Part shown: piece by piece, positions 935 to 15,117 of the stretch
How the letters are laid out: each line of letters begins with the position of its first letter
Numbering within the stretch: the stretch's first letter is position 1
DNA from: an uncultured Bacilli bacterium
Lineage (GTDB): Bacteria; Bacillota_I; Bacilli_A; RFN20; CAG-288
DNA length: 64,000 nt
Assembly: GCA_944349335.1 (NCBI GenBank)
Contig: CALVMW010000001.1
Location: forward strand, 80,309 to 144,308
Direction of reading: 5' to 3'
Made by a program: the position numbers and the translations under genes
The notes under the pieces: generated by a model
Seen by the model: only the letters and a program-made list of their open reading frames with translations
The model's database searches: none
What the model was told of the DNA's origin: nothing

Positions 935-1525
935 ATATTCTTTTCCTCCTTTTTATATGAAAAAAACGTCTTTCCCGAAAAAATGAGCTCGACATACTGA
1001 GCCCATTTAAACCAATTACCCCTCTAGATATTTGGAATAAATGGATAGCCCCTTATAATGGCTAAGGGCTAGAAACATGACCACCACTCTAGGTCAACTA
1101 TACCCATTTTTTCAATACTTAATTTTATCACATAATTTATTTTCACCATTTTTAATCTCTATTAAATAGAAATAAACGACTAACTTTTAACCGCTATCAT
1201 TCTAGTTTTTTTAAGATTTTTATACTATAAATTACTAAAAAGGGGTTTCATGATTTTTACAAAAAAAAGATTGACAAGGTCTAAAAAATTAAATTTTGTT
1301 AAGCTGTATATACTATAAAACCAAGATAAAAATAATCTATTTTTTCACTAAATTTACTCAAACTGATTATCAACATACTTAAAAAATAGAGTAACTATAT
1401 TAAATAGCTACTCTTTTAATATCAATAATTTTATTTTTTGGTAATTTCATTTTTCATTAAAATAGCTTGTCAATATTTTTTTAACCATCTATCATCTTCG
1501 AGACTATTAATTATCTAAAGAGATT

Positions 1526-2944
1526 CTAACCAATACAGGATAGAATCTCACTAGATTTAAGATGTTTCTTTTCATAGAGAAGCTTACCTAAAGCGCTGAT
1601 TTGATCTCTGTGTGCTTTAATATATTTAATAGTTTCTTTTTCACACTTTCTAAGTAAAGCTTCAATCTTTCTCTCCATCTTTCTTCTTTTGATAGAAGTT
1701 TCGGTTCTCTTTCCTGACACGATGTGGGGAAGAGTCTCCCAACAAGAGGAATAGCCACACATATTAAACATGTTGTAAGCATCGACTCTCGCGTCTTGTA
1801 AATCGTCCTCACATCCTCTTGAACCTCTTCCACAAATAATCTTTTGCGCAAGAACACCAGCCATCGAGATTTTAATATCGGCAATAATTTTCTCATACGG
1901 CCAAAAGTCGCTTTCAATTTCATTAGCATGAAATTCGCCACTAGCACCAGAAATATTAAGTCTATTAATCTTAAAGTACTCCGGAAATGCTTTAGCAACG
2001 ACTGCATGTCCTGCTTCATGAATAGCAACTTCTAAGTTATCTTGTTTAGGTTTATCTTTAACTCTATCAGTAATATTATAAATAGAATTATCAATCATTT
2101 CTGAAGTGATATTATCAAAGCCATTCCTTAAAACTAAATCGTTTACAACAGCTTTTACACCTGCGCAAGTGATACCATTTAATGAAAGAGCAACTTCTTC
2201 ATCAATGAAATCTTCTGGAAACTTAAGATTAAACTCATGAAAATACTTTTTGAGAATCTCTAAAGCTTCTTCACCAGTTGGATATGGTACTCTTAAGAGT
2301 TTTTCTAGTCTTCCATGACGTAATAAGGCATCAGGAATATCACTGATGCTATTAGTAGCAGTTAGAACTAAGATATCATCATAGCTTTCAACACCATCAA
2401 GGTTTTCTTGTAATGCTCGCACAACTCTTCTTTCATGATTAATGAGCAAATCTAACTCATCAATGACAATAATTGCATGATCTACTTCTCGAGCTTTTTT
2501 AAATGTTTCATTGATACCTCTAACAATATTATTTTGTTCACCTTTAAAGACAAACACTGGGCAGTCACAGCATTTAATAAACTCTTTAATAAACAGTGAT
2601 TTACCATTACCTGGTTCTCCAAAGAGAATCACACCTTTAGGAACTGAAATACCTTTTGCTTTATATTCTTTTGAATGTTTAAACCAATTAATAACACTAA
2701 GAAGCTCTTCCTTTTGAGCTTCATGACCAATTACTCTTTCTAAAGGAACTTCGCCTTCTTTAAGCTTTGAAGCATAAATAAGTTCATATGATTCTACTTC
2801 TTTTGTTGAAAGTGATTCTTTTGACTCACTTGTTAAAGTAGATTCATCAAACTCCACCCAATCTTCTAAATCTTCTTCTTTTAAGTCCTCTTGTTCTTGT
2901 TCTAATGCTTCATCTTCATTAATTTTCCTTAATTGATAGTTCAT
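1526..2944 (-). CDS. FtsH-like AAA+ ATPase / M41 zinc-metalloprotease without the N-terminal transmembrane/periplasmic region (472 aa); acidic low-complexity N-terminus
   Basis: Walker A GEPGNGKS, Walker B IVIDELD, second region of homology TATNSISDIPDALLRHGRLE, and zinc site HEAGHAVVAKAF all line up with FtsH. No hydrophobic N-terminal segment; the first ~60 aa are E/D-rich. Confidence 0.7.
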   Translation of the reverse strand: MNYQLRKINEDEALEQEQEDLKEEDLEDWVEFDESTLTSESKESLSTKEVESYELIYASKLKEGEVPLERVIGHEAQKEELLSVINWFKHSKEYKAKGISVPKGVILFGEPGNGKSLFIKEFIKCCDCPVFVFKGEQNNIVRGINETFKKAREVDHAIIVIDELDLLINHERRVVRALQENLDGVESYDDILVLTATNSISDIPDALLRHGRLEKLLRVPYPTGEEALEILKKYFHEFNLKFPEDFIDEEVALSLNGITCAGVKAVVNDLVLRNGFDNITSEMIDNSIYNITDRVKDKPKQDNLEVAIHEAGHAVVAKAFPEYFKINRLNISGASGEFHANEIESDFWPYEKIIADIKISMAGVLAQKIICGRGSRGCEDDLQDARVDAYNMFNMCGYSSCWETLPHIVSGKRTETSIKRRKMERKIEALLRKCEKETIKYIKAHRDQISALGKLLYEKKHLKSSEILSCIG

Positions 2945-3472
2945 ATTTTTCCTCGCTTTTCTCTATTATTATGAACACTTTTTTTACTTATTTTTTATAA
3001 ATTTAATTATGTCCTCATATAAGTACATCAATAAAAGTGAATAAGATAGTGTTTATATTTATAAAATACTCATTTTTTATATATTTTATTTATTTACTTT
3101 CTTCTAAAAATATCCATGTTTAATCAAATTTAACAAAAAAAATAATAAAAAAAAGAAAAAATAACATATTAAATTTTTTGATTATTGAAATGATTAAAAC
3201 TATAAAAAGTAAAAAAGTACTAATCTAACAATAACGATATATTTCTTCAAAAAAGTCTTTTGTTTTTAATTTCTATTCTTATTAAATCGACTCCTTAATC
3301 ACTTCAAAAAACAGTATTTTATTGAATATAAAATAAGAATATAAATAATTATAAATAGTCGAGTTATTTTAAACTATATAACTATTTTAATCTATATTAT
3401 CTTTAATTTATATATTCTCCATAAAATCACTATTAGAAATAAGAGAAGTGAAGAGACTATTTAAATAGTTCT

Positions 3473-3787
3473 TCAATCTCCAGAATTTCCTTGATGAGAA
3501 AGATAAGTTTCCTCTGTCTCCTCTCTTTTAAAAATATAAAAATTTTCAATTCTAGAAATCATAGTACTATTAAATGCTTTACGATAAGGATAAATACTAA
3601 TTAAATCAAATCCAGCTTCACCAATATTCTCTAAAGTTGTAAACCAAATATTATATTTTGGATTTTCATTTTCCATTTTAAGTTCTTTGATTAACCATTC
3701 TGCTGGAGGCTCTGAATTACACCAATACAAAATAGAATTTCTATAGCCATTGTCAGTAAATTTAAGATAAACATAAACTGTTTTCAT
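3473..3787 (-). CDS. hypothetical protein (104 aa), co-oriented 17 nt downstream of the 430-aa ORF
   Basis: ORF only; no motif recognised; tight spacing with the upstream gene suggests an operon. Confidence 0.4.
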   Translation of the reverse strand: MKTVYVYLKFTDNGYRNSILYWCNSEPPAEWLIKELKMENENPKYNIWFTTLENIGEAGFDLISIYPYRKAFNSTMISRIENFYIFKREETEETYLSHQGNSGD

Positions 3788-3804
3788 CGATTTAACCTCC
3801 TATT

Positions 3805-5097
3805 TTATGAATTATCTGTTAATTTAGTAATTTGTTCACTTATATCGAGATTTAATGTTTTAATGTATTTTTTAGCATGGTTAAAATAAAAATTATATAA
3901 TTTTTTGTTGATCATTTCGGGCCCTACTACGACAACCATATCGGAAATGTTAATATTTCCGTTACCATGTACATCACTTACAAGCCAGGACATGAAAGCA
4001 TCTGGATCAATATAAGTATTTACTACAAAATATTTCGGATCTTCACCTTCTTTAAGGGGATGAGGAATAATATAGTCAGCTTGATTGTCATTTGGATCAA
4101 TATTTTTAAGCTCATTAATATCAAATGAAGTACAAGAAACACAAGCAAATTTTGTAGAGAAGAACTCTTCATATGATCTTTTTACAAATTTAAAAAATGG
4201 TTTTCTAACATAGAAACTTGTTCTGATCGCTTCACCGCTGATAGGCATTTTATTTTCTTCGATCATTGTTTCTAATGAATCATAGTGTTTTTTAGCATAT
4301 TTAGATTTCTCTCTAAACAATTTTTCTAAATCTCTATTTTCATCAAAATCAGCGCATAATACTTCTTTATCTGAACCATCGGGTACATTAAGATTTTCGA
4401 TAGTATCAAATATATATCCCTTAAAAAAGATAAAGTCTCCAGTATCGATTGGTAATAAAAGTGCATATAGTTTATTTCGGTATTCTTTAATCTTATAAAC
4501 TCTATACCAAAAGTCATAGAAATAAATATCAGGACTCTTAAAACCACGTATTTTAAATCTGATTTTCAACATCTTTCCTTCAGTAAATGCCTTATTGACA
4601 AGCCTTATTTTTCTACTAGTAGCAATATTATATTTATTTACTCCTTTTTTAAGCTTCTTTAACTCATTTTTATAATAGCTTCGGTTATGAATATTTGATA
4701 AAGAGTCTAATAATCTTTCTATCAAAAAATCTGTATCCTCATCCTTTGTAAATTTATCATTTTGAACCGCTGCTAAAATTTTTAAAATTTGCTCTTCACT
4801 TAAATAATATTTCTGCTCAATATAATACTTGCCTGATTTTGTTACTTCTAAGACAAAAGGAACTACATCAGAAAATTTAGTGGTAACTTCCATTAAAAAT
4901 CTAAGACAGTCCCCGATTCTTTGTCTTCTAACATCATTACCCTTTTTGGCCTTAGCATCGTATTTTAAACCGAAGTCATTAGCGTGTCGACAAATATCTT
5001 GTTGTGTGGCTGGATGGTTTTCATCAGTAAATCTTAGCAAATAGTCCAGAGTAAGCAATAATTCTATTTGATGGATTCTAGTGTCTGAATTTCCCAT
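3805..5097 (-). CDS. hypothetical protein (430 aa) with N-terminal winged-HTH-like segment and a central WYL-like segment; possible BrxR/CapW-type regulator with a long C-terminal extension
   Basis: N-terminus RIHQIELLLTLDYLLRFTDENHPATQQDICRHA resembles the HTH_11 region of WYL regulators. Central KIRFKIRGFKSPDIYFYDFWYRVYKIKEYRNKLYALLLPIDTG resembles a WYL domain core. Inference from motif resemblance only. Confidence 0.45.
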   Translation of the reverse strand: MGNSDTRIHQIELLLTLDYLLRFTDENHPATQQDICRHANDFGLKYDAKAKKGNDVRRQRIGDCLRFLMEVTTKFSDVVPFVLEVTKSGKYYIEQKYYLSEEQILKILAAVQNDKFTKDEDTDFLIERLLDSLSNIHNRSYYKNELKKLKKGVNKYNIATSRKIRLVNKAFTEGKMLKIRFKIRGFKSPDIYFYDFWYRVYKIKEYRNKLYALLLPIDTGDFIFFKGYIFDTIENLNVPDGSDKEVLCADFDENRDLEKLFREKSKYAKKHYDSLETMIEENKMPISGEAIRTSFYVRKPFFKFVKRSYEEFFSTKFACVSCTSFDINELKNIDPNDNQADYIIPHPLKEGEDPKYFVVNTYIDPDAFMSWLVSDVHGNGNINISDMVVVVGPEMINKKLYNFYFNHAKKYIKTLNLDISEQITKLTDNS

Positions 5098-5524
5098 ATT
5101 ATTCCTCCACGCTTAAATGATAATATATGAAAAAAGTATAACACACACATTTTTAATTATGTACTTATATAAGAACGATAAATATTCTTAACTTTCTAAC
5201 TAATATTAAAATTACTTTAGTTACAAACCAAAATTTTGAAATTTTTAATACTCTCTTTTAGCCTTAGTTAAATATAAGACATAATCCATAAAATCATAAT
5301 TTAGAATTTAAAAATAAGCTTATAGGTTAAATAAAGTTTAAAATATAGATTATTATTTTTTAGTGACAACACACAGACCATTTCCACATGAGTACTAAAT
5401 CAAAAAATATCCCCACAAAATAACGAAAATATAAGAAATATTTCTGTAGTACTAATACTGTTCGTACAACCCTTTTCCCACAAAATATAGATTCCATCAA
5501 TTTTGCGTTTCCTTGATGCAAAAT

Positions 5525-6540
5525 CTACTCCTCACTATCAATATTATCTTCCACTGTCTTTATAGATTCCAGGGCTTGATATTCCTGTTTTAATTCTCGA
5601 AGCAATTCTTCCTCGCTTGGTAAATACAATTTGTATTTTGACGCAAAAATCTGTGTTTCATTTTCAGGTAACGTATACTTAACTACAGACTCACTTTTAT
5701 CTGCGCACAAAACAATGCCAATCGGTGGATTGTCTCCCTCATTCATAAGTTCTCGCTCATAATAATGAACATACATCTGCATCTGTCCTAAATCCTGATG
5801 TGTTAAGTCTCCAACTTTTCAATCTATCAAAACAAAACACTTTAAAATGTAATTATAAAATACAAGATCAATTCTAAAATGCCGCCCATCAAATGTTATT
5901 CTTTTCTGTCTTGCAACAAATGAAAATCCTATGCCAAGTTCCAAAATAAATTTCTGTAAATGTGTAATTAGAGCTTGTTTTAAATCACTTTCATAAAAAT
6001 CTTCATTCGGTGTCAGTCCAAGAAATTCTAATACATATGGGTCACGGATGACATCTTCAGGTTTCTTCATCGGCTCTAAAGCCTGTATTTCCTGTGAAAC
6101 TTGCTCCTTATTTTTACTGGATAATAATCTTTCATAAAAGAAGGAATTTATCTGACGCTCAAGTTGTCTGGTACTCCATTGAGACTTTACAGCTTCCTGC
6201 ATATAAAATTCTCGTGCATTTTCATTCTCTACTCGCATTAGAAGGCGATAGTGCGTCCAACTCAATCCGCTACGCAGTGCGTAGCCATTTGGAAATGTTA
6301 AATAAAATTGCCTCATATTTTTCAAATTTGCAACGGTAAATCCTTTACCAAAATCTCGTGTCATTTGCTTTGACAACTCTTTTAATAAGCCTGTACCATA
6401 CTTAGCTTTTCCATTGCCACCTTGTTCTTCAATGATTGATTTTCCTATATTCCAATAGGCTTCAACCATTGCAAAATTAGCCGTTTGATAGACTTTATTT
6501 CTCGCTGTGGTTCAAATATTCTTTATTTCATCATAGAATT
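5525..6540 (-). pseudogene. YhcG/DUF1016-family PDDEXK nuclease, disrupted (two in-frame TGA codons, degraded start)
   Basis: The 216-aa (5819..6469) and 85-aa (5525..5782) track ORFs are in the same frame, separated by an in-frame TGA at 5819-5821 (...CFVLID*KVGDLTHQDLGQMQMY...). The N-terminal homology RNKVYQTANFAMVEAYWNIGKSIIE continues upstream of the annotated Met to a second in-frame TGA (...FYDEIKNI*TTARNKVY...) with no usable start. Matching residues include YWNIGK, NLKNMRQFY, RIDLVFYN and a DUF1016 C-terminal tail. Confidence 0.6.
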
Positions 6541-6574
6541 TTTAATTCATATACAATCCTCTTTTCTGAGATTT

Positions 6575-8584
6575 TTAAGATGGCATATTATCTTCGATAA
6601 TTTGTTTTATAATATCAAACACTAAATGAAATTCTGAAAAATCAATATTCTTCATTTCCTCACTCTCCGTGTAGATTGCCTTTGCAAATTCCATTTTGGA
6701 CAAAGCCAAATTAACCTTATTTTCATCTTTAATACTAAATACTCTTTTTTCCGATTGTCCGTCGATAATACAAATTTTCCCATGCCCACAACTATTTCTA
6801 TCCAAGCACATATAGTTCTTATCATTTGACAAACCAAATTCATCAAATTCCCGTCCCATATATATCCTTCTTGGAATACCATTAATCTCTATGGCTCTTT
6901 GTAAATCATCATCTAAATAATAATGTTCAATACACACTTGCTGCGTTTCTAATCTATGCTTTGGTATAGGCAAAATCATAGAATATACATTATTTTTCCA
7001 TATTTTGTACCTTCCTTCCACAGTTAATTGTTTGCTTGTATTTCTATCATCGGCATCAGCAACGAATATTATTTTTCGTGATTGCTGTACCTTTTCAAAT
7101 TCTTTGCACATTGTAACAAGATTAGAAGAACTCATATCTAATTTGGGGAGGTCATTGCTTTTAGAATTTTTAGGATTGTACTCAAGGAACTCTATGTCCA
7201 AATCATTATATTTTTTCTCCTGATTCTGAAAATAACGTAAAGCGGCTTTAAGATGCCTCCAGTCAGTTGCCCCTTCTGTTACAACTAAAGTCTTCTGCGT
7301 TCTATTTTGAATTGCATTTTTAATTTCTGATTGATATTTTTCTGTATTAGTCATATATGTGTATGCCTTCTTAAATTCTGTAAATCCTTCTGATGAGATT
7401 ATTTCTGCATTTGGCATCTGGTATATGTAATATCCATCTTTCCCATATTGTTCATCCATTCCTAACAGAAAAAGCGGGGAATGTGTCGTTATTATAAATT
7501 GTACTTTTGGAAATAATTTAAGCAATTTTGGTAACACCTCCCTCTGTAGTTTCGAATGTAAATGCAGTTCTATTTCATCAATAACAACAATCCCTTCTAT
7601 TTCATAATTCTTAATGCTTCTATTTATATCATTACTATCAGCATATCGTATAATCGTGGCAAACATATTAAACAATGCACTTTGTCCCGTTGATAATGCA
7701 TCCAATGTTGGGATTATGACTTTGTTGCTTTGACTATCAAAAATATTAAATCTTGATCCATACGCAGAACGAAAATTTAATCCAAAATATATATCTCTAC
7801 CGAGTATTTCCCCCATGACCTTTTCAATATTTTCTCTTGCAATATTCAATATCAATGCTTCGTTCACATCAACATGTGCAACTTGTAATCCAGTATTAGT
7901 TTTTTTTATATCCACTCTTGAATCCACAATGACATCCAAAAGCCACTTTAATGTTTCTTCCGTTACATTTTTTACTGAGATTGGCGTATTTAACTTTCCA
8001 TCATACCGATTTCTAATCATTATGTGCATGTCTGAGTCTTGCTCAGACACATAATATTTTTTCCCCATCCACTGGGGTCTTTCATATCTATCTGGTCCGA
8101 AATAACAAAAAATATTTTTCTCAAATACTTTTTCTATTTCTTTTTTTGAAATAAAAATATCTTTAAAATTTTCCTCATCTTTCCATATCCTTTTATTTTT
8201 TAATTCAACCCCTGTTTCAAGATGAAATTCATCATAAGTTAATTTGCCACTCTTAAATATATACTGACCTGCAGTATCTTCCTTATTAGATTCACAAAAT
8301 TCGATATAGGATATCATAAACTCATGACCAATATTTATCTCAGACGGAAGAATAGCTTTATAATATTGATAGCCTTCTCCATCTCTCTCTTGAACATTAT
8401 TGTAGACTTTTCCGGCCATTTCATAAAATGCATCAACTATGTTAGATAGTACTGTCGATTTTCCAGAACCATTTTCTCCGACTAATACAACGGGTTTAGG
8501 TGTATTATCACTATTTTTTCCAAAACTAATATTAACCCTTTCAGTAGGTCCAATGTTTCTATTATAAATAGATTTTATTTGCAC
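6575..8584 (-). CDS. OLD-family ABC-type ATPase fused to a C-terminal Toprim (DUF4435-like) nuclease domain; length and architecture fit a single-polypeptide PARIS (AriA-AriB) defence protein or a class-1 OLD nuclease
   Basis: N-terminal Walker A VLVGENGSGKSTVL; ABC-type Walker B/H-loop VVIDEIELHLH...FIITTHSPLFL; C-terminal LVVTEGATDWRHLKAA (Toprim Glu) and IIFVADADDRN (DxD). Intact 669-aa ORF. Confidence 0.65.
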   Translation of the reverse strand: MQIKSIYNRNIGPTERVNISFGKNSDNTPKPVVLVGENGSGKSTVLSNIVDAFYEMAGKVYNNVQERDGEGYQYYKAILPSEINIGHEFMISYIEFCESNKEDTAGQYIFKSGKLTYDEFHLETGVELKNKRIWKDEENFKDIFISKKEIEKVFEKNIFCYFGPDRYERPQWMGKKYYVSEQDSDMHIMIRNRYDGKLNTPISVKNVTEETLKWLLDVIVDSRVDIKKTNTGLQVAHVDVNEALILNIARENIEKVMGEILGRDIYFGLNFRSAYGSRFNIFDSQSNKVIIPTLDALSTGQSALFNMFATIIRYADSNDINRSIKNYEIEGIVVIDEIELHLHSKLQREVLPKLLKLFPKVQFIITTHSPLFLLGMDEQYGKDGYYIYQMPNAEIISSEGFTEFKKAYTYMTNTEKYQSEIKNAIQNRTQKTLVVTEGATDWRHLKAALRYFQNQEKKYNDLDIEFLEYNPKNSKSNDLPKLDMSSSNLVTMCKEFEKVQQSRKIIFVADADDRNTSKQLTVEGRYKIWKNNVYSMILPIPKHRLETQQVCIEHYYLDDDLQRAIEINGIPRRIYMGREFDEFGLSNDKNYMCLDRNSCGHGKICIIDGQSEKRVFSIKDENKVNLALSKMEFAKAIYTESEEMKNIDFSEFHLVFDIIKQIIEDNMPS

Positions 8585-11431: not shown

Positions 11432-12534
11432 AGATCCCTCATAACTATATATGACTCAATTAAGGTCGAACCTATATTATAACCTCCGCAAGGAAGATTA
11501 ACATCTAAAACTTCACCGATAGCATATAGATTCTTATCTTCTTTTGAGGAAAAATTATGATTTAATAACTCTATATTAATACCACCATATGAGACCTGCG
11601 AATCTTTAAAAGGATAAAAATCCTGGAAATGAAAGAGAAGTTTACTATTTTTTATTTTATTCTTTTTTAGATATTCGATTAAAAATTTAGGATAAGCTGA
11701 TAAATCAGATATTAATTTAAACCCTTGGTATCTAGAAAAATCGATTTGAATAGATATTTCGTCTTTATTATATCCATCCTTTATCAGTTCATTAATATAT
11801 AAAGATAGGTTCATGATCACAATCCCAGATAAACCATCTTCCTTAAAGAGAACTTCGCCTTCTTCAGAATAAATTATCTTTCCCTTAACTAAGAGTGAAC
11901 AATTTCCTCTCAACCTTTGATTTTTTAAGCTAAAAGTTTTTTCTCTTACTTTTATTGGAACTAAAGAAGGAGAAAAAGGTCTATATGGTATCCTAAGTGA
12001 ATCAAGCAAACTGTAATCTACCTCTCTATCATAAGAAAAACCACCGGGAGCAAAGATTATTTTATCGTAAGGCTTAACTGACTTTTTTTCATTTGCAATA
12101 TAAGTGACTTCTTTTTTTATCCTATCAATTTTAATCACGTCATTAAAATTAACTGATATATGACTATCAATTTTCGATATTAAAAAATTGTAAATTGATT
12201 CAGAGCGATTAAAGAAAGGATAATATAAATCACCTTCTTTATAATATGAAAAAGAAAGTTTATCAGTTAAATAATGAAAAAAAGCATTAGGAAAATCTTC
12301 TCTATTAAAGAAGAAATCTTTTAGTTTATGCAAATAAAAGACATCATAATTATCACTATTTAAAAGTTTTTCATTGAAAAAATTACAGCGCCCATTACCA
12401 GCGACTAAAATTCTTCTTGCTAATATATCATTTTTTCTTTTTTTATCAAAAATGGTTATATGATATTTACTAGATAATTCAATAGCAGGAATCAAAGAAG
12501 AAATACCGCCACCTATGATGACTAATTCATCCAT
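11419..12534 (-). CDS. NAD(P)/FAD-dependent oxidoreductase, HI0933/BaiN-like flavoprotein family
   Basis: N-terminal dinucleotide-binding fold LVIIGGGISSL...IFDKK and the GNGRCNF motif characteristic of the HI0933 family. Confidence 0.65.
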   Translation of the reverse strand: MDELVIIGGGISSLIPAIELSSKYHITIFDKKRKNDILARRILVAGNGRCNFFNEKLLNSDNYDVFYLHKLKDFFFNREDFPNAFFHYLTDKLSFSYYKEGDLYYPFFNRSESIYNFLISKIDSHISVNFNDVIKIDRIKKEVTYIANEKKSVKPYDKIIFAPGGFSYDREVDYSLLDSLRIPYRPFSPSLVPIKVREKTFSLKNQRLRGNCSLLVKGKIIYSEEGEVLFKEDGLSGIVIMNLSLYINELIKDGYNKDEISIQIDFSRYQGFKLISDLSAYPKFLIEYLKKNKIKNSKLLFHFQDFYPFKDSQVSYGGINIELLNHNFSSKEDKNLYAIGEVLDVNLPCGGYNIGSTLIESYIVMRDLWKK

Positions 12535-13968: not shown

Positions 13969-15117
13969 CTAAATCTTTAAAGCTTTCGTAATCTTTTTAA
14001 CGAGTTTCTCCTCTTTTTCTTCATAACCGAAAGATAAAAAGACATCTTTATTTATTTTACCCACAAAATATGAATTATATGGAACATGTTTCATCGACAT
14101 ATTTTTTTCAAATATATCGATCAAAGTTATCAGTTCTTCTTTACTTGCTTTTAAAGAAGTACATAGTTTTATTTCATAATCAAAATTTTCTAAAGCCTTA
14201 ATCTTTAAATAAGCAAGAGGTTCATCTTCTTTTCTTAATAGATAATAAAAATCATCGCTTGAAAAATCTTCAAAATCTTTTTCTTGTGCTTTTTTATCTA
14301 TCATTGCAATCTGTAAAAAATCCGCAGGAGTATCACATTTCTTAATGAACAAATCATTAACATGAGCCCCTTTCTTAAAATAAAGTAGCTGATATTGCTC
14401 TGAATTATTAAGAAGGGTTATAAGAGAAGTCTTACTATCAGGATACTGTTTATAAATATCTTGAAGCATAGTTTTTATTTCTTCTCTTTTTGTTCTTTTA
14501 TCATTACCACATGAATTTTTAGTAGTAGGAAAGTTTAATCTTTTAGATAAACTTAAGATATCTTTTTCTTCAGCTAAAATTAAAGGGCGAATAAAATCAA
14601 TATCTGCACAATCTAAATGCATCTTTGCTTCAAAAGTATTGATTCTGCCCGTATAAAGCATGTTTAAGAATAAAGTTTCTAGGCAATCATCGATATGATG
14701 AGCAAAAGCAACTTTTTTAAAGCCTAATTTCCTAGCAGCTTTATTGATGATAGCTTTTCTCATCCTTGAACATATAGAGCAGGGAAGTAATCCATCTTTA
14801 CTCTTATGTTGAGATAAAATAGAAAAAACTTCTTTCGCATCATATTCAATATAAGGGATATTTAAATTCTCAATAAACTCTTTAACTTTAGTAAAATCGA
14901 CATAAGGAAAACCAAAATCGAGGTGAACAGCAGCTAAAGTGAAATTTTTATCGCGAAATAAAGAATATCGTGAAAGCAAGTAAGCTAAAGCTAATGAATC
15001 TTTACCACCTGAGATTCCAAGAAGAATTTTATCACCATTTTTTATAAGTCCATACTCATAATCAGCTACTCGGATAGCAGCTAAGAGTTTTTTTATCAAT
15101 CTTTCATTATTTTCCAC
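13969..15117 (-). CDS. PP-loop ATPase of the TtcA / tRNA 2-thiocytidine synthetase-like family with C-terminal extension
   Basis: PP-loop ILLGISGGKDSLALAYLL, and the TtcA-type CxxC motif CSICSRMRKAIINKAARKLGFKKVAFAHHIDDCLETLFLNMLY. 382 aa is longer than typical TtcA. Confidence 0.65.
   Translation of the reverse strand: MENNERLIKKLLAAIRVADYEYGLIKNGDKILLGISGGKDSLALAYLLSRYSLFRDKNFTLAAVHLDFGFPYVDFTKVKEFIENLNIPYIEYDAKEVFSILSQHKSKDGLLPCSICSRMRKAIINKAARKLGFKKVAFAHHIDDCLETLFLNMLYTGRINTFEAKMHLDCADIDFIRPLILAEEKDILSLSKRLNFPTTKNSCGNDKRTKREEIKTMLQDIYKQYPDSKTSLITLLNNSEQYQLLYFKKGAHVNDLFIKKCDTPADFLQIAMIDKKAQEKDFEDFSSDDFYYLLRKEDEPLAYLKIKALENFDYEIKLCTSLKASKEELITLIDIFEKNMSMKHVPYNSYFVGKINKDVFLSFGYEEKEEKLVKKITKALKI

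Follow-up and report, generated by a model that had tools for sequence, protein, structure and literature searches.

What does an FtsH-like protease do when no membrane holds it? The question is raised by a gene near one end of a 64-kb stretch of DNA (hereafter the window) from an uncultured Bacilli bacterium of the RFN20 lineage (contig CALVMW010000001.1), which forms part of a 397-kb metagenomic scaffold. The gene (1526-2944, minus strand, ATG start; identified from the open reading frame (ORF) list, Pfam and AlphaFold2 (AF2) model matches) encodes a soluble protein of 472 amino acids (aa) that joins an AAA+ ATPase module to an M41 zinc protease. A first-pass annotation had described it as a soluble FtsH paralogue, possibly a mobile-element or defence-associated protease. 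It is a variant of the known FtsH/M41 AAA+ proteases, and more unusual than first described: both pore loops are shortened, the gene shares a conserved candidate operator with the gene of a WYL-type regulator, and its homologues lie beside ADP-ribose-processing enzymes and defence genes. On balance we lean towards reading it as an inducible zinc protease of the cytoplasm, encoded by an accessory gene and belonging to a conflict module that is WYL-controlled and centred on ADP-ribose; ATP would gate the enzyme rather than thread its substrates.

Pfam recognises an AAA domain (PF00004) at residues 105-221, scoring 71.6 bits against a cutoff of 21.2, followed by a Peptidase_M41 domain (PF01434) at residues 301-467 (1544-2044, minus strand; 57.7 bits against 29.9). 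The Walker A motif GEPGNGKS (residues 109-116; 2597-2620, minus strand) and the Walker B motif IIVIDELD (residues 158-165; 2450-2473, minus strand) can be read from the sequence. G109, P111, G112, N113, G114, K115 and S116 of the former, D162, E163 and D165 of the latter, the sensor-1 residue N198 and the arginine fingers R209 and R212 are all invariant in an alignment of 43 homologues. Located by motif position, the zinc motif HEAGH occupies residues 309-313 (2006-2020, minus strand), and H309, E310, H313 and the putative third zinc ligand D381 do not vary among 43 close and 43 distant relatives. The AAA+ and M41 motifs are therefore complete, as the first-pass annotation had it, and the Pfam scores, the HEXXH motif with its third-ligand Asp, Walker A and B, sensor-1 and the arginine fingers place the protein in the M41 superfamily and the classic AAA+ clade. 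The best Protein Data Bank matches of its AF2 model are FtsH (A. aeolicus, T. maritima), AFG3L2 and YME1.

Also borne out is the lack of a membrane anchor. No transmembrane segment was found in the protease, whose highest Kyte-Doolittle mean over 19 residues is 1.52 and falls within the M41 domain, and Pfam detects no FtsH_ext domain (PF06480) in it. The protein begins instead with the acidic tail noted earlier (residues 1-62; 2759-2944, minus strand; defined by composition and by the predicted local distance difference test, pLDDT), which carries 20 D/E against 7 K/R and is predicted to be disordered, pLDDT being below 50 for residues 1-49. Homologues vary in the sequence of this tail but keep its charge: it is net negative in all 107 homologues in which it could be measured. 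Its median length is 48 aa, and D/E make up 34% of it, compared with 15% of the remaining protein. We take the protein to be a cytoplasmic, presumably hexamer-type AAA+/zinc metalloprotease derived from FtsH, its nucleotide site still competent for hydrolysis and its M41 active site intact. A further ORF is nested out of frame in the M41-coding part (1588-2028, minus strand), with equivalents of 81-146 aa open in 13 related loci (loci are numbered L001 onwards); strong sequence conservation of a gene rich in AT is the most likely reason that it stays open.

AAA+ proteases are generally taken to work through their pore loops, and both appear to be lost here. When aligned by MAFFT with FtsH of E. 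faecalis and with two membrane FtsH paralogues from plasmids, the family is missing the 8 residues that carry pore loop 1 (MFVGVGAS), and with them the aromatic-hydrophobic-Gly motif. What remains of pore loop 1 is KGEQNN (residues 134-139; 2528-2545, minus strand), 6-8 residues shorter than in FtsH, a truncation on which MAFFT, HMMER, the AF2 model and motif spacing agree. Pore loop 2, which follows Walker B (residues 166-171; 2432-2449, minus strand; MAFFT, HMMER and motif spacing), is 10-11 residues shorter than in FtsH and AFG2, the MAFFT alignment giving 11. An HMMER alignment to AFG2 opens the identical two gaps and puts Ile at the position of the pore-loop aromatic residue. In the AF2 model, strand beta2 spans residues 129-133 and helix alpha2 starts at 140, leaving only six residues (134-139) between them. 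Walker A and Walker B are 53 residues apart, against 59 in E. faecalis FtsH and in 76 viral FtsH homologues, and Walker B is 21 residues from the DG motif, against 32-33 in nearly all canonical proteins (30-34 overall, with two unmeasured). In the MAFFT alignment, Val or Ile stands in place of Phe in DGF, the motif for inter-subunit signalling. An N-terminal hydrophobic segment occurs in none of 170 short-loop proteins and in 42 of 47 canonical ones, so the loss of the anchor and the loss of the loops go together. Both deletions, along with HExxH, are common to about 80 short relatives (405-480 aa) with identities down to 28%. A non-threading mechanism is probable for the window protein.

Related proteins are numerous. 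A search of 5.8 billion proteins gave 1627 matches, the best 120 of which are 68-95% identical, 453-504 aa long and composed of AAA and M41 domains only. Among 1.84 billion cluster representatives, 239 proteins matched at E<=1e-30, canonical FtsH included, and about 80 among the best representative matches listed are short, soluble relatives with both loop deletions. Their sources are uncultured Bacilli of gut and rumen and Erysipelotrichaceae-like metagenome-assembled genomes, and they were found in 19 GTDB species representatives. The source annotations give them no name, the one exception being a JGI label, 'cell division protease FtsH'. That name does not fit the window protein: it scores 143 bits against a cutoff of 600 for the FtsH equivalog TIGR01241 and 67.8 bits against 1008 for PRK10733, and no family in NCBIfam, PADLOC or PHROGs fits beyond generic AAA+ similarity. 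A literature search found no description of a soluble or pore-loop-less FtsH, including in defence.

The likeness to FtsH, Yme1 and AFG3L2 lies in the layout, with an AAA+ module of the classic clade and, behind it on the same chain, an M41 zinc protease, and in the conserved Walker A and B, sensor-1, arginine fingers, HEXXH and third-ligand Asp. Canonical FtsH is nevertheless only about 25-28% identical to the window protein, which lacks transmembrane helices and FtsH_ext, has both pore loops shortened and the DGF Phe replaced, and carries an acidic disordered tail; its gene is, on our reading, accessory and WYL- or riboswitch-regulated, not housekeeping. Chloroplast FtsHi, part of the Ycf2-FtsHi import motor and among the structural matches of the protease model, offers a parallel as an FtsH derivative that keeps one of two activities and has taken on a new job. 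FtsHi has lost the protease zinc site and kept the pulling motor. The window protein is its mirror image, keeping the protease site and losing the pulling loops.

The window contains a single HE[AGS]GH site in a six-frame scan, and no second FtsH-like homologue was found in the first 36 related loci (L001-L036). The genomic setting agrees that this is not a housekeeping-type FtsH. TilS is encoded in the window (13969-15117) with no ftsH after it, so that the core order tilS-hpt-ftsH of Firmicutes is absent. Across 26 representative loci the context of the protease gene varies, and homologues lie outside conserved core synteny, beside Cas9, restriction-modification (R-M), GmrSD and SLFN-like genes. 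Downstream of the window gene are genes for Bmp, an ABC transporter and LeuRS; conserved synteny with this block was considered and rejected, as it is present only in a sister strain (L022-24).

Upstream lies the gene of a 430-aa protein (P430; 3805-5097, minus strand) classed from its AF2 model and Foldseek as a transcription factor of the winged helix-turn-helix (wHTH)-WYL-WCX type. P430 has no Pfam match, neither WYL nor HTH being detected at E<=0.01. Its AF2 model (pLDDT 87.6) gave PafBC, DriD, CapW and BrxR as top Foldseek matches, with probability 1.0, E of about 1e-6 and alignments of about 420 columns. Since the fold match covers its whole length, P430 is, by its predicted structure, a regulator of this type, with a winged HTH, an SH3-like WYL barrel and a WCX domain. 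It resembles CapW, BrxR, PafBC and DriD in the whole fold, in a neighbourhood of conflict genes and in having a palindrome in its own promoter, but is about 100 aa longer, and one P430 subfamily has a C-terminal P-loop extension. Members of that subfamily (proteins P0159-P0228) are 583-596 aa long with an extension of about 150 aa, in which the P-loop reads GPSGIGKT in P0216 and is degenerate in P0170.

The promoters of P430 and the protease are joined by a 16-bp palindrome, GTWCTNATATNAGWAC, which matches exactly twice in the window against 0.07 expected, once in each of the two. The copy GTCCTCATATAAGTAC (3011-3026), a candidate operator, is 66 nt upstream of the protease start, and the second copy, GTACTTATATAAGAAC (5161-5176), is 63 nt upstream of the P430 start. 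A candidate extended -10 element of the protease promoter, TGTTCATAAT (2968-2973, minus strand), was read from the upstream sequences, and an equivalent element is kept upstream of protease homologues. The palindrome recurs 66-70 nt upstream of protease homologues in L003, L004, L005, L007 and L011, with degenerate versions (GTAC-N8-GKAC) in L008, L016 and L030, and it precedes P430 homologues in 10 loci at 53-64 nt, mostly 62-64 nt, from the start. When the exact pattern was widened slightly, it matched 20 times in the fetched loci, always in loci of this family and never in 86 others. Further copies precede a 208-aa family (L010, L029) and a leucine-rich-repeat-type gene (L003). A P430 homologue lies within 10 kb of the protease gene in 13 of the 26 representative loci, usually immediately upstream. 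The palindrome is thus a conserved candidate operator shared by the protease gene and the P430 gene, and the protease gene would belong to a small regulon marked by it. P430 most likely binds this palindrome (GTACTTATATAAGTAC as its candidate target) and so regulates both itself and the protease gene.

The first-pass annotation had treated the protease gene as separated from the WYL-like operon by an AT-rich spacer. The 528-bp gap is real (2945-3472), and AT-rich (GC 0.22 for 3001-4000), but the two are not merely separated, the palindrome being common to both promoters. An Rfam scan of the spacer for a riboswitch or other RNA found nothing credible, the sole match being a sub-threshold snoRNA.

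Which processes the protease might serve is suggested by the neighbours of its homologues. In 13 of the 26 representative loci a gene for an ADP-ribosylglycohydrolase (ARG) lies no more than 10 kb from the protease gene; in 8 of the 26 this is true of a protein combining FtsK-gamma with HAD_SAK_2, which often precedes ARG in the order protease-HAD-ARG. Among the 148 nearest neighbours in 20 loci, the most frequent Pfam families are ADP_ribosyl_GH (9), HAD_SAK_2 (6) and FtsK_gamma (5), followed by NADAR, NUDIX, Fic and AAA_5. Defence genes near homologues include Cas9 arrays, R-M systems and SLFN-like ATPases, as well as type II, III and IV restriction genes, SoFic and PDC candidates; the window itself has an OLD/PtuA gene. 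The association extends to more distant members of the family. In L019 (52% identity), ARG, PHP and NUDIX genes are nearby. Within a distant subfamily (30-32% identity), the L044 gene is two genes from ARG, that of L046 has ARG four genes upstream and a type I R-M system after it, and that of L047 has an FtsK-gamma+Macro protein directly after it, with GmrSD, Dcm methylases and HNH further on. No P430 homologue was found beside this subfamily, the 437-aa neighbour in L047 being a polytopic membrane protein.

An operon of genes for MoxR (AAA_5), a 146-aa protein, an HExxH+vWA protein and a MetK-like protein is present in five loci, for example at 5697-9977 in L026, where it runs into the FtsH-like gene, 13931-18204 in L029 and 13259-17509 in L030. 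Its protein of about 440 aa has a HELYH metallopeptidase-like motif and a vWA-like DxSGS motif, and its MetK-like gene is a divergent S-adenosylmethionine (SAM) synthetase paralogue. In L010 a Doc/Fic-family protein (11754-12290; NGNKRTA motif) is encoded between the FtsH-like gene and the HAD-ARG pair. Precomputed Pfam annotation assigns to one short FtsH-like protein (P0410, 472 aa) a fused FtsK_gamma winged-helix domain, which in other loci is fused to the HAD and Macro partners; the fusion hints that the module works on or near DNA. On the C. botulinum plasmid pCBG (L039, 5590-9595) a membrane-anchored FtsH paralogue with normal pore loops has ARG about 1.5 kb away, which may be coincidence.

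The combination recalls the ARG-centric systems, whose predicted role is to counteract ADP-ribosylation by viruses (PMC9503650; Iyer, Burroughs, Aravind et al. 2022). As set out in section 3.8 of that paper, they unite ARG and a phosphatase, for which HAD is one option, with a regulator of WYL or Nudix type, chaperones such as vWA, and additional NADAR or Macro proteins; they were described from actinobacteria, planctomycetes and proteobacteria, not Bacilli. The loci of the relatives resemble them in a one-component WYL/Nudix regulator with ARG, in vWA and NADAR/Macro, and in a conserved core bearing variable accretions inside defence islands; HAD or other phosphatases may be a further point in common. 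Because ADP-ribose-removing partners (ARG, Macro, NADAR) occur with HAD and FtsK-gamma in defence islands, we place the protease, on the reading favoured here, in the ARG-centric class. The window differs from that class in having neither ARG nor a phosphatase, and in a module that includes an AAA+/M41 protease. P430 supplies the WYL-type regulator. Phosphatases are found with the relatives, as HAD_SAK_2 in 6 of the 148 neighbours and as PHP and NUDIX in L019. An ADP-ribosyltransferase is not among the 25 commonest neighbour families, although no dedicated search for one was made.

In some relatives a second type of sensor precedes the protease gene. With the Rfam gathering score of 44.4 bits for the SAM-I riboswitch (RF00162), SAM-I elements were found directly upstream of the protease gene in L046 (7864-7991, 55.6 bits) and L047 (3272-3361, 51.2 bits). 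In L010 (8943-9032, 50 bits) the element follows the regulator and precedes an operon of a 203-aa gene and the protease gene, and in L016 (13075-13161) and L030 (13093-13179), at 46.9 bits, it precedes the MoxR-vWA-MetK-like operon. Rfam finds no SAM riboswitch in the window. A SAM riboswitch before a protease or ADP-ribose-hydrolase operon is unusual, and no paper in the searched library combines SAM riboswitches with anti-phage defence. In L046 the SAM riboswitch and the FtsH-like gene are immediately preceded by a full-length ROOL RNA (RF03087, 206 bits; 7217-7751, minus strand), which runs on the other strand.

With its anchor and loops lost, its operator shared with a WYL regulator, and ADP-ribose enzymes as neighbours, the protein looks like an on-demand protease of a conflict system and not a housekeeping FtsH. 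A stress or infection signal would be sensed by the WYL domain of P430 or, in other loci, low SAM by the SAM-I riboswitch, and the protease gene would be switched on. The protease would then act in the cytoplasm on specific targets, with ATP binding and hydrolysis gating its assembly or access to the protease chamber and no polypeptide being pulled through a pore. It would form the protein-clearing arm of an ARG-centric conflict system predicted to counter foreign ADP-ribosylation. The more specific roles of effector or antitoxin-degrading module, offered as examples by the first-pass annotation, find no support, as nothing in the analysis shows either. A bolder and rather doubtful version holds that a large, undescribed, non-threading AAA+/M41 family is the executive arm of conflict modules triggered by signs of phage counter-defence. 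The WYL regulator would then sense ligands derived from ADP-ribose or nucleic acid, and the SAM-I riboswitch would sense SAM depletion, for example by phage SAM lyases. Proteins that are ADP-ribosylated or foreign would then be cleared by the protease, possibly on DNA, with ARG, Macro or HAD enzymes that carry an FtsK-gamma tag acting beside it.

Several points weigh against the conflict-module reading. No homologue of ARG, HAD, Macro, NADAR or MoxR-vWA occurs anywhere in the window, so the ADP-ribose link comes from the relatives. The binding of P430 to the palindrome and the sign of its effect are what we infer, and L003, L005, L007 and L011 have the operator yet no P430 within 10 kb. The loss of the pore loops is deduced from sequence and model, and an alternative gripping surface may exist in their place. 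For a defence gene, the identity of 68-80% between proteases of different genera is unusually high. No PADLOC model describes the protease, the sole matches there being to generic IetA AAA+ profiles at 50 bits or less, and PMC9503650 mentions no FtsH, M41 or AAA+ protease among the ARG-centric systems.

The IetA matches bring to mind a system in which an AAA+ ATPase is likewise coupled to a protease in defence islands. IetAS reportedly (from work by Gao and colleagues in 2020) consists of the AAA+ ATPase IetA and the protease IetS. IetS is a separate serine protease, whereas the window protein has a fused M41 domain. The IetA scores are weak in NCBIfam as in PADLOC (IteA, NF042959, 37 bits against a cutoff of 510), and an IetS-type subtilase is absent from the 25 commonest Pfam families of the 148 neighbours and from the flanks of the window.

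Comparison with the sister strain bears on how the module has been inherited. The window module consists of the regulator, a small protein and the protease. The small protein (104 aa; 3473-3787, minus strand) is encoded 18 nt downstream of P430, has no match in Pfam, PADLOC, NCBIfam or PHROGs, and has homologues only in close relatives (L004 and L022-24; 47-72% identity). The sister strain has the same trio (430-aa protein, protein of about 105 aa, protease) between a RumA-like methyltransferase and Bmp. Between the two strains the core flanks are 94-98.5% identical, against 91% for P430, 72% for the small protein and 90% for the protease; between the window and other genera the RumA-like protein is 41-50% identical and the protease 68-80%. 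Such decoupling from the flanks is as expected of a gene pool that moves between genomes. Further upstream, the window has a gene for a 669-aa ABC/PtuA-like ATPase fused to Toprim in an OLD-family architecture (6575-8584, minus strand; PADLOC scores of 116 bits for PtuA and 107 bits for the RT-Toprim C-terminal models). Next to it is a YhcG/DUF1016 PDDEXK nuclease gene (PDC-S02; 5525-6469, minus strand) that is split into two ORFs (216 and 85 aa) and is probably a pseudogene. The sister strain has neither of these genes (5525-8584), which points to their having been inserted recently in the interval from the RumA-like gene to the WYL regulator. A terminator-like hairpin with a T-run (1388-1414, minus strand), about 110 nt past the stop codon of the protease gene, was found by a consensus scan that gave 3 sites in the region against 0.8 expected, and is a putative terminator.

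Much of this could also describe a gene of ordinary chromosomal physiology, namely a lineage-specific stress protease in a WYL-controlled, SOS-like DNA-damage regulon with no part in anti-phage conflict. P430 would then, like PafBC and DriD, sense single-stranded DNA and activate a few repair genes, and the protease would clear damaged or DNA-bound proteins. PafBC and DriD, the best structural matches of P430, are indeed activators of the DNA-damage response, and the partner enzymes carry FtsK-gamma DNA-binding domains. NADAR, Macro and ARG enzymes can reverse DNA ADP-ribosylation. The high identity of the protease across genera, the same RumA-like gene near it in the window, L005, L013 and L022, and the absence of a copy from the phage and plasmid collections searched fit as well. 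Yet the location of the gene varies by species, with Cas9, R-M, GmrSD, Doc and SLFN genes adjacent; the protease diverges faster than its flanks between sister strains; and a SAM riboswitch would not be expected for a DNA-damage gene. We regard this explanation as unlikely. Less probable again is that the protease is itself the switch, cleaving or degrading P430 as a repressor, or another regulator, when a signal arrives and so derepressing the regulon. Site-specific cleavage needs no pore loops, and an HTH regulator is paired here with a zinc protease, usually as adjacent co-directional genes. Stress and defence regulons have protease-regulator pairs of this kind, in which CapP cleaves CapH, ImmA cleaves ImmR and IrrE cleaves DdrO. 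The proteases of these pairs are of the ImmA/IrrE family and lack an AAA+ module, and their regulators are small XRE-type proteins with no WYL sensor, whereas the window pairs an AAA+/M41 protease with a WYL-type regulator. WYL regulators carry their own ligand sensor and are not known to need a protease. The protease gene also bears the operator and would be repressed just when needed, unless its expression were leaky; many loci have the protease without P430 nearby; and in L044 and L047 no P430 homologue lies beside the gene.

The first-pass annotation also raised a mobile-element role. Cargo status on an unrecognised element (a prophage, an integrative and conjugative element or an island), for instance as an anti-defence or host-takeover protease travelling with ADP-ribose enzymes, would account for the decoupling of the protease phylogeny from its flanks. 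It would also suit the long co-directional arrays in some loci (NrdD/NrdG, dNK, methyltransferases, FtsK-like ATPases, Doc) and the ROOL RNA that adjoins the gene in L046. tRNA genes beside a module are typical of island insertion sites, and one lies directly upstream of the FtsH-like module in each of two unrelated loci, L015 (9637-9710) and L044 (6967-7038). Against this, searches of 50,697 phage records, 72,556 plasmids and IMG/VR brought up no relative with more than 30% identity, and a scan of IMG/VR for close relatives likewise found nothing. The candidates that tblastn returned for a phage or plasmid origin were rejected, being below 30% identity and of canonical FtsH type with N-terminal extensions. 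A profile scan of IMG/VR gave 275 relatives, of which the best 80 are canonical long FtsH proteins with full pore-loop spacing. The loci annotated with Pfam showed neither an integrase nor a structural gene of a phage, and the window trio sits between core genes with no recombinase or repeats around it. These collections thus give no evidence for a phage or plasmid origin, and we hold the cargo explanation to be improbable.

The family keeps its ATPase and protease sites under strong purifying selection and deletes both pore loops, which implies a different use of ATP, in gating, assembly or allostery. If the conflict-module reading is true, a protease arm is added to the systems predicted to counter ADP-ribosylation. 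The same output gene is linked to sensors of two unrelated kinds, one a WYL regulator and the other a SAM riboswitch, and the regulator-operator pair provides a direct experimental handle on organisms that are so far uncultured.

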